Part shown: in pieces, positions 50,756 through 62,510 of the stretch
How the letters are laid out: each line of letters begins with the position of its first letter
Numbering within the stretch: the first letter of the stretch is position 1
Assembly: GCA_963727445.1 (NCBI GenBank)
Contig: CAVSGI010000009.1
Span: 864,001-928,000 of the forward strand
Length of the DNA: 64,000 nucleotides
DNA from: an uncultured delta proteobacterium
GTDB lineage: Bacteria; Myxococcota_A; Polyangia; Polyangiales; B10-G4
Direction of reading: 5' to 3'
The notes under the pieces: model-generated
Databases searched by the model: none
Seen by the model: the letters and a program-made list of their open reading frames with translations, nothing else
Told to the model about the DNA's origin: nothing
Translations under genes and position numbers: made by a program

Positions 50756-52432
50756 ATGGCCGATTACATCTTCACGATGCAGGACCTGATGAAGGTCCAC
50801 CCTCCCGACAAGAAAGTCGTGGAGGACGTCTATCTCTCCTTCCTCCCGGGCGCCAAGATCGGCGTCATCGGCGTCAACGGCACCGGGAAGTCCACCATCC
50901 TCCGCATCATGGCGGGACAGGACGACAACTTCACGGGCGAGGCGTGGCTCCGCCCCGGCGCGACGCGCGGCTACGTTCCGCAGGAGCCCGATCTCGGTGA
51001 CGCCAAGACTGTGAAGGAGTGCGTCGAAGAGGCGGTGAGCGAAAAGCGCGCGCTCCTGACGCAGTTCGAAGAGCTCTCGATGAAGCTCGGCGAGCCGATG
51101 AGCGACGAGGAGATGACCAAGCTCCTCGAGAAGCAGGGGCGCCTGCAGGATCAGATCGACGCGCAGGACCTGTGGAACCTCGACCATCAGCTCGAGATCG
51201 CGATGGACGCGCTTCGCCTGCCGCCGCCCGACGCCGATCCCAGCGTTCTGTCCGGCGGTGAGCGCCGCCGCATCGCGCTCTGCAAGGTGCTGATGCAGAA
51301 GCCGGACCTCTTGCTCCTCGACGAGCCGACGAACCACCTCGACGCCGAGTCGGTGGCGTGGCTGCAGGGGCACCTGCAGAGCTATCCGGGCTGCGTGGTC
51401 TGCGTCACCCACGACCGCTACTTCCTCGACGAGGTGGCGGAGTGGATCCTCGAGCTCGACCGCGGCCACGCGCTGCCCTTCAAGGGTAACTACACGGCGT
51501 GGCTCGAGCAGAAGGAGGAGCGGCTCCGCAAGGAGGAGAAGAGCGAGAGCTCGCGGCAGCGCCACATCAAGCGCGAGCTCGAGTGGATCCGTTCTTCGCC
51601 GCGGGCGCGCCAGGCGAAGAGCAAGGCGCGCATCCAGGCCTTCGACGAGCTGGTGAACGCCGCCGGGGCGCAGAAGCGCTCGGCGAACGAGGTGCAGATC
51701 CCGCCGGGCCCGCGTCTCGGTGACAAGGTCATCGAGATCAAGGGCGTCAAGAAGGCCTACGGCGACAAGCTCCTGATGGAGGACCTGAACCTGATCGTCC
51801 CGCCGGGCGGCGTGCTGGGCATCGTCGGGCCGAACGGCGCCGGCAAGACCACGCTCTTCAAGATGATCGTCGGCGAAGTCGAGCCGGACGAGGGGACGGT
51901 GGAGATCGGCGAGACGGTGGAGCTGAGCTACGTGGACCAGAGCCGCTCGAACCTCGACGGGGACAAGACCGTGTACGAGGAGATCAGCAACGGCCGGGAC
52001 ACCATCGAGCTCGGCAAGCGCGAGGTGAGCTCGCGCGCGTACTGCGGTTGGTTCAACTTCAAGGGGAGCGACCAGCAGAAGAAGGTGGGCAAGCTCTCGG
52101 GCGGTGAGCGCAACCGCGTGCACCTGGCGAAGCTCCTCAAGCAGGGCGGAAACGTGCTGCTGCTGGATGAGCCGACGAACGATCTGGACGTGGAGACGCT
52201 GGCGAGCCTCGAGCAGGCGGTGCAGGACTTCCCGGGCTGCGCGATCGTCATCAGCCACGATCGCCGCTTCCTCGACACCGTCGCCACGCACATCCTCGCC
52301 TTCGAGGGCGACAGCGAGGTGCGCTTCATGGAGGGGACGTATCAGGATTACGAGGCGGACCGGCGCAAGCGGCTCGGGGATGCGGCCGACGTCCCCAAGC
52401 GGATCAAGTACCGCAAGCTGACGCGGAGCTGA
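50756..52432 (+). CDS. ettA: Energy-dependent translational throttle protein EttA (ABC-F)
   Basis: MADYIFTM..., LSFLPGAKIGV.G.NGTGKST, two ABC domains, [17 protein letters not shown] end; 558 aa. Confidence 0.95.
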   Translation: MADYIFTMQDLMKVHPPDKKVVEDVYLSFLPGAKIGVIGVNGTGKSTILRIMAGQDDNFTGEAWLRPGATRGYVPQEPDLGDAKTVKECVEEAVSEKRALLTQFEELSMKLGEPMSDEEMTKLLEKQGRLQDQIDAQDLWNLDHQLEIAMDALRLPPPDADPSVLSGGERRRIALCKVLMQKPDLLLLDEPTNHLDAESVAWLQGHLQSYPGCVVCVTHDRYFLDEVAEWILELDRGHALPFKGNYTAWLEQKEERLRKEEKSESSRQRHIKRELEWIRSSPRARQAKSKARIQAFDELVNAAGAQKRSANEVQIPPGPRLGDKVIEIKGVKKAYGDKLLMEDLNLIVPPGGVLGIVGPNGAGKTTLFKMIVGEVEPDEGTVEIGETVELSYVDQSRSNLDGDKTVYEEISNGRDTIELGKREVSSRAYCGWFNFKGSDQQKKVGKLSGGERNRVHLAKLLKQGGNVLLLDEPTNDLDVETLASLEQAVQDFPGCAIVISHDRRFLDTVATHILAFEGDSEVRFMEGTYQDYEADRRKRLGDAADVPKRIKYRKLTRS

Positions 52433-52453
52433 GCCGCCCCTCTCCGACCCGGC

Positions 52454-52580
52454 GGGGACGTCGTTCACTTTTGACGCAACCCAGGCGAGCGCGATCGAAC
52501 GCGGGTCGTTGCCGGATCGCGCGACCCGCGCTGGTCAAAAGTGCACTGCGTCCCCTTCCAACGTCCTTGGGGGGGACGCA
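52454..52580 (+). other. Nested inverted-repeat (structured) element downstream of ettA
   Basis: CACTTTTGAC/GTCAAAAGTG, GCGCGATC/GATCGCGC, CGCGGGTCG/CGACCCGCG, TGCGTCCCC/GGGGACGCA. Confidence 0.75.
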
Positions 52581-52759
52581 CGGATTCGGAGTTCGGATTC
52601 GGAGTTCGGATTCGGAGTTCGGATTCGGATTCGGAGTTCGGAGTTCGGATTCGGAGTTCGGATTCGGTGTCGGATTCGGATTCGGATTCGGAGTTCGGTG
52701 TCGGATTCGGATTCGGAGTCGGGGGCGGGTTCGGATTCGGAGTTCGGAGTTCGGATTCG
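52581..52759 (+). repeat. Mixed 6/7-bp microsatellite (CGGATT / CGGAGTT / CGGTGT), 179 bp
   Basis: Directly visible. Confidence 0.95.
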
Positions 52760-52764
52760 TGATC

Positions 52765-52827
52765 GGACCCTGAGGTGCGTGGTGTTGCTCATGGGGGGTA
52801 TGAGCAACACCACGCACCTCAGGGTCC
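52765..52827 (+). promoter_or_regulatory. Perfect 28-bp hairpin pairing with the first 28 nt of the four-helix-bundle gene; loop GGGGGGT
   Basis: GGACCCTGAGGTGCGTGGTGTTGCTCAT / ATGAGCAACACCACGCACCTCAGGGTCC. Confidence 0.9.
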
Positions 52828-60184: not shown

Positions 60185-60342
60185 CGGATTCGGAGGTCGG
60201 ATTCGGAGGTCGGATTCGGAGGTCGGATTCGGATTCGGATTCGGTGTCGGATTCGGATTCGGATTCGGAGTTCGGTGTCGGATTCGGATTCGGAGTCGGG
60301 GGCGGGGGCGGATTCGGAGTTCGGATTCGGAGTTCGGATTCG
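60185..60342 (+). repeat. Microsatellite copy B (CGGATT / CGGAGGT / CGGAGTT / CGGTGT), 158 bp
   Basis: Directly visible. Confidence 0.95.
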
Positions 60343-60347
60343 TGATC

Positions 60348-60410
60348 GGACCCTGAGGTGCGTGGTGTTGCTCATGGGGGGTATGAGCAACACCACGCAC
60401 CTCAGGGTCC
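60348..60410 (+). promoter_or_regulatory. Perfect 28-bp hairpin over the start of the four-helix-bundle gene, copy B
   Basis: Identical to 52765..52827. Confidence 0.9.
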
Positions 60411-60721
60411 TTCGGGATACGATCCAAATCATTCGTGAGCTTCGGCCGGTCATCGGGCGGCTGAAGAAGCGGAACGCGAAGCTGGCGGATCAGCTGGAGC
60501 GGGCCGCGACGAGCAGCGCGTTGAACCAGGGCGAAGGGAATGCGATGCGGGGCGGCAATCGCCGCAAGCACTTCGACATCGCGCTGGGCTCGACCCAGGA
60601 AGTGAGGGTCGCCCTCGAGACGGCGGCGGCCCTCGGGTACATCCCCGACGAGATCGTCACCCGATTCGATCCACGACTCGACTCGATCTGCGCGCGGCTG
60701 TATCGGCTCGCGGGGTATTGA
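60383..60721 (+). CDS. Four-helix-bundle protein, copy B (identical protein)
   Basis: Same 112-aa sequence; 3 synonymous SNPs. Confidence 0.88.
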   Translation: MSNTTHLRVLRDTIQIIRELRPVIGRLKKRNAKLADQLERAATSSALNQGEGNAMRGGNRRKHFDIALGSTQEVRVALETAAALGYIPDEIVTRFDPRLDSICARLYRLAGY

Positions 60722-60725
60722 GCGG

Positions 60726-62510
60726 GGCTCGCGAATGGCGTCCGCCGGCGGCCCGGCGGCGGATCGCCGATTCGGCGGCGCAACTGCCGACAATCACTGA
60801 CCGTGATGCGGGCACAGATGTTGCCGAGCCGCGTGCGTGCAGCGCCTCTCGTCGACGTCGCGGAAGTATGCCCGCCGCGACCGCGAGCGCTCCGCTCTGC
60901 ACCAGACGGTCCGTGAGCACCTCGAGACGTTCCTGGCGGAGACCCGGACCACGGACCGGGACGGCGTCGGTGTTCCGGCTTTCGTCGAGGCTGAGCTCCG
61001 GCGCTTCCTCGAATGCGGCGTCCTCGCTCATGGCTTCGCGCGCTTTCGCTGCGACGCGTGCGGCACGGACCGCCTCGTGGCGTTTAGCTGCAAGGGTCGC
61101 GGTTTCTGCCCTTCCTGCGGCGGGCGCCGCATGACCGCGCAGGCGGCGCACCTCGTCGACGAGGTCCTACCACCGGTCCGCATGCGGCAATGGGTGCTCA
61201 GCCTCCCCTTCGAGCTCCGCTATCGTCTCGCCTTCGACCACGAGCTCAGTCGCGCCGTCCTCGCCGTCTTCACGCGGGCGATCTTCGGCTTCCTCCGGGA
61301 CCGCGCGAAGAGGCGCGGGCATCCAGGAGGTCGCGCAGGCAGCGTCACGGTCATCCAGCGCTTCGGCGGCGCGCTCAATCTCAATCCGCACTTCCACACG
61401 CTCGTCCCGGATGGGGTGTTCCTCGAGGCGCCGGATGGATTCGGTCCGCTTTCACCGCCTCCCGCCCCCGACTGACGAGGAGGTCGCGGCCCTGCTCACC
61501 ACCCTCGTCGCGCGTCTGCGGCGCCTGTTGATCCGCCGCGGCGTCTGGCGGGAGGGCGACGACGGAACGGACTACGTCGATCCCACCCTTCACGAGCGCC
61601 TCGGCGCCGCCGCCATCCAGCAGGTCGCGCTCACCGGTCCGCGGGCACTTCTCTCCACGCGCCGCATCCGGACCGCTCCGCCCAAGACGTCACCGAAAGT
61701 CCTCGGCCGCCGCCGCGCCCGCCAGGACGGATTCGACCTGCACGCCAACACCGCCGTGCGCGGCAAGAACCGCCCGCGACTCGAGCGCATCTGCCGCTAC
61801 CTGCTCCGGCCCCCCGTGTCGGAGTCGCGCATCGAGCGGCACGGCGATCGTGTGCTGCTCACTCTGAAGACCCCCTACGATGACGGCACCACGCACCTGA
61901 GCTTCGAGCCCACCGAGCTCCTCGGGCGCCTCGCCGCCCTCGTCCCCCGCCCTCAGAAGAATCTCCTCCTCTACCACGGCGTCTTCGCGGCCAACGCGAA
62001 GCTGCGCAAGCAGGTCGTCGCGTACGGGCGTCCCTCCGAGCCAGGCAAGGGCCCGAAGCACAGCACGTCCAAACGCAAGCGTCACAACCCGAGCTGGGCA
62101 GAGCTCATGCGTCGCGGCCTCGACATCGACGCGCTCGAATGCCCGAAGTGCCACTCCCGCATGCGCTTCGTCGCCTCAATCCTGAGACCGGCCACCATCC
62201 GCCGCATCCTCGAGAGCCTCGACCTGCCGGCAGAGCCAGTCGTGCCCGCCCCGGCGCGCGCACCGCCCAACGACGACGACCTCTTCTTCGACGTCGCCTG
62301 AGCGGCTCCGTTCGAGTCGTCGACGTCGCGATCCGTCCGCCGCTCGACCCTCGCCTGAAGATCGGGTCATCATGCCTTTCATGCCCCGTCCGGTTTCCAG
62401 CCTCCACGGAAGCCAACCCCTTCACCGGACGCCCGAGTTTCGCAGTAGGTATGATCTGTCGACTCGCGCCTCCGGCGGGAGTGGCGGGAGGCCGTTTGTG
62501 ATGGCTATCC
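60726..62510 (+). mobile_element. IS91/ISCR-like element (ends inferred)
   Basis: Transposase plus oriIS-like CCGTTTGTGATGGCTATCC at 62492..62510, followed by a visible shift to AT-richer DNA; imperfect hairpin upstream. Confidence 0.6.
60837..62301 (+). CDS. IS91-family (HUH Y2, rolling-circle) transposase with N-terminal Zn-binding domain, frameshift near 61440
   Basis: CGVLAHGFARFRC..C, AFSCKGRGFCPSCG, RQWVLSLP, NPHFHTLV (HUH), LERICRYLLRP, YHGVFA, C-terminal CPKC. Confidence 0.92.

Follow-up and report, generated by a model that had tools for sequence, protein, structure and literature searches.

Extra ettA ends as probable passengers of an ISCR-type transposon heading an origin-delimited array in a myxobacterial genome

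The window analyzed here is a stretch of 64,000 nucleotides from an uncultured delta proteobacterium (G000:C9:864001-928000, where G000 is the source assembly and C denotes a contig; positions without a contig are those of the window). It contains an intact ettA gene, additional copies of the ettA 3' end and a transposase gene of the ISCR type. The extra ettA ends are probably passengers of an ISCR-type transposon, carried along by one-ended transposition. The same transposon heads a downstream row of DNA blocks that are separated by copies of its own origin. An earlier note on this DNA had taken the ettA 3' end as an anchor for repeated integration, giving rise to an integron-like array. Such an array exists, but it is delimited by origin copies and not by ettA tails; it is likely to be an integron-like platform for gene capture.

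The resident ettA (50756-52432, forward strand) encodes 558 amino acids and scores 919 bits against TIGR03719 (cut-off 807) and 915 bits against NF008775. It is followed by a module composed of a spacer (52433-52799, forward) and a gene for a four-helix bundle protein of the 23S rRNA IVP-like type (52800-53138, forward; PF05635, E 3e-12, and TIGR02436). The spacer holds a long hairpin (52454-52555) and an array of GGATTC-type hexamers (about 52581-52760), and a perfect 28-bp inverted repeat (52765-52827) spans the start codon of the four-helix gene. The segment 51986-53147, consisting of 447 bp of ettA, the spacer, the hexamer array and the four-helix gene, recurs at 59590-60732; of 1170 aligned columns, 21 are mismatches and 35 contain gaps. 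In this second copy the ettA end (tail 3; 59590-60036, forward, 447 bp) precedes the second spacer, hexamer array and four-helix gene (60037-60732, forward; the gene itself at 60383-60721). Tail 2 lies between the two copies (58728-58799, forward) and is 72 bp long, with 84.7% identity to ettA (E 4.5e-18 within the window). The three ettA tails, resident end included, the two four-helix modules, the two copies of a palindrome termed motif M and the IS91-like gene described in the earlier note were all confirmed by sequence comparison and profile matches. A search for further ettA ends added three fragments outside the window: tail 4 (360 bp, C21:11034), a 14-bp scrap at C12:56894 followed by the four-helix module and M, and a 16-bp scrap at C10:591698 followed by a deletion into the four-helix gene and then an intact transposase gene. 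The tails start at different points of ettA (-447, -360 and -72, plus the two scraps of 14-16 bp). All three long extra tails are located between ettA and hrpB in the orientation of ettA, and the two scraps are located elsewhere. A four-helix module is also present at C12:56265-56880, and about ten more distant members of the family are scattered across the genome; a literature search on four-helix bundle modules returned nothing relevant.

Compared with the resident gene, tail 3 shows 12 silent and no replacement differences (neutral expectation 23% silent; p 2.6e-8), and tail 4 shows 5 silent and 1 replacement (p 0.004 against neutral drift). Tail 2 has 7 silent and 4 replacement codons, one of which, R-to-H, is the natural residue of the same-genus genome G001, and its unbroken identity with the resident gene is 14 bp at most. 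It follows from this silent excess that the tails were working gene ends of other strains or of a related species rather than duplicates decayed in place. Judged from these codons, tail 3 came from a working ettA of another strain, and tail 2 can be assigned to a more distant ettA allele. The four-helix gene is likely under selection, as all 3 differences between the copies in the window are silent and none is a replacement.

Tails that differ in the manner of strain alleles could also be produced if the metagenome assembler had made a chimera of strains, which we consider highly improbable. The joins are non-homologous, and repeat collapse does not create joins of that kind; similar junctions involving this element are found again on C10, C20, C21 and C24, and independent genomes share the layout of the origin arrays. 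The assembly, 86% complete and with a gap inside the island after ettA, has a contamination of 1.3%. Three public sequencing runs contained 9-15% of the words. Their contigs, at most 402 bp long, match parts of 49,057-59,089; one bridges the ettA stop, and another takes in the final 22 bases of tail 2 and runs through M into the nucleotidyltransferase gene. The left junction of tail 2 is not crossed by any public contig, as a chimera would have it, and the compared stretch ended at 59,580, before tail 3. These contigs neither support nor refute the tail junctions.

Immediately behind the second four-helix gene stands the transposon. Its HUH (Y2) transposase gene (60837-62301, forward) matches PF14319 and PF04986 above cut-off, and the product is 40-43% identical to the transposases of ISCR1 and ISVsa3. 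One inserted base near 61439, which may be a sequencing error, splits the gene; intact copies of 487 amino acids are found on C24 and C10. Upstream, the left end is formed by a terIS-like hairpin (60733-60790, forward; fold z -2.7), whose motif is kept upstream of the related genes at loci L060-L062 and in G009, G205 and G215. Downstream lies a 124-bp origin segment (62389-62512, forward), the head copy of the downstream array, with oriIS proper at 62491-62512, about 210 bp past the transposase gene and with the terminal pattern of ISCR elements. The sequence ending at 62512 aligns with plasmid-derived ends of ISCR1 and ISVsa3, with the 22-bp ISCR1 end printed in PMC13023784 section 2.2, and with the ends behind the 59-60% identical transposases of G009, G205 and G215. 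The two ends are dissimilar, and no target duplication was seen when the flanks were inspected by eye. A zinc-binding N-terminal domain with Y2, an oriIS downstream and a terIS-like hairpin upstream, the features of the ISCR subgroup, are all present. By these sequence features the window element is an ISCR-type rolling-circle transposon, as the earlier note had suspected from an IS91-like gene. Its score of 332.7 bits against NF052416 (cut-off 925) places it outside ISCR clade Ia. The 124-bp repeat was also considered as an attC site, a group II intron end, an IS256 or ISL3 end and an IS110 miniature, all of which were rejected because its right end matches ISCR origins.

The point at which this transposon inserted can be recognized. 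The native and the duplicated module agree as far as 53147 and 60732, 9-11 bases past the four-helix stop codon; beyond these positions the native locus runs into the region of M, and the copy runs into the left end of the element. An independent copy on C20 starts at the identical base. The native locus thus represents the empty target site (53139-53148), which the element occupies on C10 and in copy 3. All four copies with a transposase have the same origin end, four different right flanks and differing left extents. An origin at the left of the repeat, with capture downstream on the top strand, was rejected on account of these fixed right and variable left ends. The sequence [N]NRC stands at the start of 7 of 8 captured left ends (background 0.31, p about 0.002), a rule picked after the data were seen and counted with the C5 remnant left out. 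That remnant (C5:177426-178380) is a collapsed derivative with short pieces of the hexamer array, four-helix gene, transposase and origin and with many internal deletions. The CTTG/GTTC-type tetranucleotide next to oriIS of IS91, IS801 and IS1294 was not found, and the right flanks have no tetranucleotide consensus; in G000 the signature is RC on the left flank, and the terminal hexamer tracks the lineage of the element.

A fixed right end, variable left ends and upstream passengers are the outcome that one-ended transposition gives in IS801 and IS91. Under this explanation the element would, in a sister strain, once have been located 9 bp past the stop codon of the four-helix gene. Rolling-circle copying that started at its origin would then have overrun the left end into ettA, reaching 447 bp into the gene for tail 3, 360 bp for the C21 fragment and a few bases for those on C10 and C12, and the overrun unit would have been re-inserted at sites ending in RC. 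Tail 2, M and the nucleotidyltransferase pair may be an older capture of like kind from a related species. Ordinary recombination between strains may afterwards have swapped the resident ettA allele, and such an exchange would explain both the silent differences and the empty site. In favor of passengers, the 16-bp ettA scrap and four-helix remnant travel with the intact C10 copy, far from ettA.

The region behind ettA is variable, as the earlier note had proposed. In 6 of 29 relative loci, including that of the sole same-genus genome (G001), hrpB lies at most 1.5 kb past ettA; in G000 it is found at C21:110205, in the same orientation. From this position it follows that the ettA region is the left edge of a large variable island. 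The interval from ettA to hrpB in G000 would comprise 22 kb on C9 and up to 110 kb on C21, the end of C9 and the start of C21 being inferred to adjoin.

Against this background the anchor explanation has to be weighed, in which ettA offers homology, circles carrying a tail and cargo recombine in, the gene is restored and older tails are pushed downstream. Such a model is published for ISCR1 with qacEdelta1-sul1 (PMC13023784 section 2.2), and tails 2, 3 and 4, which go back to three different working alleles, do share one orientation within the ettA-hrpB interval. We nevertheless regard it as unlikely. Rolling-circle re-entry predicts an origin directly before each tail, which was observed for none of the three long tails, the nearest origin standing 608 bp ahead of tail 4; tail 2 lacks the length and the similarity to be a displaced end of the resident gene; and the tail-3 junction would first require a transposition. 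The five start points, the missing origins and the absence of a nearby integrase do not bear out the ettA 3' end as a repeated anchor. Tail 2 is likewise not the resident end pushed downstream, given that the resident sequence upstream is 97-98% like tails 3 and 4.

Related genomes speak against the anchor as well, which would lead one to expect extra tails in them. Among 400 other genomes in the order, 341 were matched by the last 43 residues of EttA, a query that recovers tail 2 in G000; this count and that of 52/401 given below include the unpublished genomes G383 and G639, on which no other claim rests. A single ettA end was found in 335 of the 341. Among the six genomes with two matches, G020, G525 and G598 have second genes that are whole or cut by the contig, G518 has a contig-end variant, and true orphan tails occur in G348 and G488, on other contigs; none of the 341 has tandem tails, and the set held no conspecific genomes. 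The pattern looks specific to this strain. The orphan tail of G348 (C13:88361-88459, L201) measures 103 bp, is 86% like the host gene and carries the same K-to-E codon as tail 2; neither a transposase of this ISCR type nor an integrase was found among 23 nearby open reading frames scanned. The orphan end of G488 (C475:1422-1502, L202), where no integrase was found either, is unlike the host's own gene, and the sequence directly before it resembles an integron attC site when judged by eye. Among 76 metagenome loci with relatives of the transposase, none has an ettA end or four-helix gene upstream.

Several points weigh against the passenger explanation. The shared interval and orientation of the long tails are equally expected from homology anchoring, although local hopping explains them too, and the union of C9 and C21 in that interval has synteny as its sole ground. 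The assembly lacks the donor allele, with ettA, module and transposon in succession. Since neither a transposase nor an origin belongs to tail 2, its assignment depends on one junction, and the C10 left end breaks the NRC rule. According to PMC6218425, there was no experimental evidence for ISCR transposition as of 2018.

On its right side the transposon opens an array. Its last 124 bp recur in G000 with 41 sharp left ends, of which 22 have the origin pattern intact; the copies cluster on C5, C9, C11, C12, C20, C21 and C24. The origin copies are 82-124 bp long and delimit blocks of 0.2-10 kb in rows of up to six or more. Downstream of the window transposase, co-directional copies are located at C9:929094, 931474 and 933582, and the first block extends from 62513 to the first of them. 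The first 24 bp of this block are a fragment of the C14 tRNA-Met gene (62513-62536), which is followed up to 62685 by 143 bp resembling C14:377259, 4 kb from that tRNA; together they suggest a captured island border. An RCC1 lipoprotein gene (62744-63916, reverse) lies farther inside. Blocks in general carry whole and cut genes, often 81-96% like other chromosomal loci, that end at origin boundaries.

Similar rows were observed in other genomes. A degenerate origin pattern matched 52/401 genomes of the order, with 0-1 control matches per genome, and rows occur in at least four families of this one myxobacterial order. In 12 other genomes, which belong to three other families and include kin that are not independent, neighboring origins within 15 kb were co-oriented in 25/25 pairs among the matches listed. 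Only the terminal motif of the segment is conserved across relatives: the 131-bp origin segment of the window had no match in 60 relatives, and its left-half pattern had none in GTDB or viral contigs. In all seven arrays of at least two co-oriented origins that have a transposase gene or remnant (C9, C24 and C5 of G000, and those of G009, G215, G388 and G390), it stands at the upstream end, which gives a one-directional array downstream of an enzyme gene, as in integrons. Copies differ from their own head by 0 and 0 bases on C9 and by 0 and 2 on C24, compared with 11-33 from other heads; the values are 0, 0, 2 and 3 in G009, 0, 0 and 0 in G215, and 0, 5 and 28 in G388, where they grow with distance. 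Divergence rises away from the head in 3 of the 5 arrays measured. Heads are preceded by CCG or CCGG and copies by RC: in G000 the preceding base is C in 33/36 and the preceding pair GC in 22/36, and in four other genomes the pair is GC in 12/13 and AC in 1/13.

To account for this order, each addition of new DNA would take place at the head origin and would duplicate the terminal 82-124 bp. The transposase may nick the bottom strand before GY, both at the origin and in incoming DNA; short abortive synthesis would copy the origin segment up to the internal boundary, and cross-joining would place the foreign strand between the old and the new origin. Such a course would leave RC to the left of copies, no fixed signature on the right and a gradient of divergence. 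An alternative route has a mini-origin insert, capture upstream DNA and return to the head. This three-step route predicts lone mini-origins with contiguous flanks, and none were found: none of 6 traceable left flanks continues to the right of the same copy. Simple insertion of mini-origins was rejected in the same manner, no copy with traceable homologues having contiguous flanks.

Returning to duplication at the head, we put forward only tentatively, and as rather less than an even chance, that the transposase acts as a cassette integrase. It would insert foreign DNA at its own origin, duplicate the terminal 82-124 bp each time and write a polar record, like that of integrons and CRISPR, in myxobacteria; IS110 would parasitize the sites, and the ettA tails, as left-end passengers, may secondarily steer the exchange of the island between strains. 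Some observations do not fit. In G000, neighboring pairs are co-oriented in 20/28 and opposed in 8/28; a looser pattern gives one opposed pair in G205:C7; the C9:931474 copy differs by 40 from the head of its row; and RC precedes the join in just 2/6 right-hand junctions with a traceable homologue.

Other mobile elements are associated with the origins. An IS110 element of 343 amino acids, first considered as IS3, follows several origin copies (C9:929212 and 933700; C21:2472 and 6988; C12:32205; C11:6575 and 12364; C24:1409) and is inserted in the CT of the ISCR origin in all copies examined (7). IS110 elements are RNA-guided, and this one appears to target the origin of another element. A second IS91-family type, with a tyrosine recombinase beside the Y2 transposase, lies between origin copies at C11:7948-9989 and on C22. 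Genes for MobA/VirD2-like relaxases are present in or at the end of origin arrays in G009 (C12:97095-98297, L176) and G215 (C4:44913-46157, L178), hinting that array blocks stem from mobilizable DNA. A 1.06-kb block with an origin copy is 99.5% identical between C21:154-1217 and C11:6576-7640; either whole blocks move, or the assembly branches there.

Between the tails of the window lie the cargo blocks. Cargo 1 (53502-58718, forward) encodes a PKD-domain protein and a lipoprotein operon that ends with an RCC1-repeat lipoprotein gene, and near-identical short contigs of it are present in the three public runs. The operon has three lipobox-like N-termini, as judged by eye, and two of its adjacent open reading frames (55837-57674) may be a single frameshifted gene. 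The nucleotidyltransferase-like gene (58910-59392, reverse) has weak matches to DUF2204 (E 1.7e-4), AbiEii and DUF6036. It is overlapped by a small open reading frame (59286-59531, reverse), read from the sequence, and the part of this partner that was scanned had no NCBIfam match. The palindromic motif M occurs at 53171-53195 and 58838-58862. M-like palindromes number 18 genome-wide against 0 in 3 Mb of simulated sequence, and M is probably a member of a REP-like family. It lies inside larger dispersed palindromes at C4:40353, C5:195758, C10:148930 and C27:149012, and on C10 one such palindrome is 12 bp behind a tRNA-Arg gene.

Motif M enters into a further explanation, in which an integrase-driven element targets the ettA 3' end, tail 2 is a displaced attachment remnant and M is an arm site. 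The size of tail 2 fits such remnants, the fragments stem from gene ends that were functional, a tRNA-Arg end on C10 has M behind it, and the G348 orphan tail shares the K-to-E codon. This explanation is very unlikely. No tyrosine integrase (PF00589) was found on C9 or C21, the 12 matches in the assembly all being on other contigs, so that the earlier remark on a window free of integrases extends to both contigs; a large serine recombinase (PF07508) was not found in the 86%-complete assembly, and the gap in the island leaves room for an integrase. Five start points leave no constant crossover, and no integrase occurs among the 23 open reading frames around the G348 loci. The 18 dispersed copies rule out M as an ettA-specific arm site; the earlier note was right about its two copies but not about their tie to an ettA cassette layout. 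The shared K-to-E codon was dropped as a lead, since among GTDB contigs the pattern is confined to G348 and viral contigs lack it.

How ISCR elements acquire genes downstream of the origin is an unsettled question on which this family bears, while the idea of an ettA anchor adds little by itself. With its dozens of natural junctions that bear a consistent signature, its intact transposases (C10 and C24) and its arrays in several genomes, the family makes origin capture directly testable. If the duplication model is true, an HUH transposase would be a third builder of ordered cassette arrays besides integron integrases and Cas1.

Host genes near ISCR elements have a further precedent, besides sul1, in groEL near ISCR3-type elements, and groL was found upstream in one locus examined. 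A groEL-intI1 fusion is mentioned in PMC3285670, and sul1 before ISCR1 is the precedent for an upstream host gene fused to the element (PMC13023784). The G000 element resembles ISCR1 and ISCR2/ISVsa3 in its HUH transposase, its origin pattern, host DNA fused at the left end and variable DNA to the right of the origin, an arrangement described in PMC6218425 and PMC13023784 section 2.2. Unlike in the complex class 1 integrons of ISCR1, the passenger is the end of a housekeeping gene and not an integron 3' segment, and the blocks are separated by 82-124-bp origin copies and not by whole elements or sul1 repeats. Unlike ISCR clade Ia, the element keeps a left-end hairpin and scores far below the NCBIfam cut-off. 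For IS801 and IS91, PMC3189936 and PMC13181058 show one-ended transposition, capture of upstream DNA and miniature fragments of the right end, and a fixed right end, a variable left end, captured upstream gene fragments and short right-end pieces are shared with G000. IS801 miniatures are simple insertions bordered by the target tetranucleotide, whereas the G000 copies inherit the terminal hexamer with the element and line up behind the parent. The ISCR28 'sandwich', in which capture takes place between two sequential oriIS (Yuan et al. 2024, according to PMC12772301), similarly has a gene block bounded by two co-directional origins; as described there, it is one block in a clinical context, whereas the rows found here count up to six or more blocks and have a fixed internal boundary. 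One-ended capture by ISCR elements, IS801 miniatures and the two-origin sandwich are already published, and the array delimited by origins is a variant form of gene capture by ISCR elements. No description of head-first mini-origin arrays or of ettA as an integration site was found in a literature that was largely open-access, with supplements excluded.

Another comparison is with integrative elements by which the 3' end of a target gene is replaced, and with tandem accretion islands: here too, gene-end fragments punctuate an island, but there is no integrase and no constant crossover, and fragments also occur away from ettA. Integrons and CRISPR arrays may be compared by analogy only. Unlike in integrons, no IntI tyrosine recombinase is present on C9, and the separators are ISCR origin segments; unlike in CRISPR, there is no Cas1, and the candidate enzyme is an HUH transposase acting on units of 0.2-10 kb, often with cut genes. 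With both systems, the arrays share an enzyme gene at the head, a single direction, copies of a site between the units and, in 3 of the 5 measured, divergence that grows away from the head.

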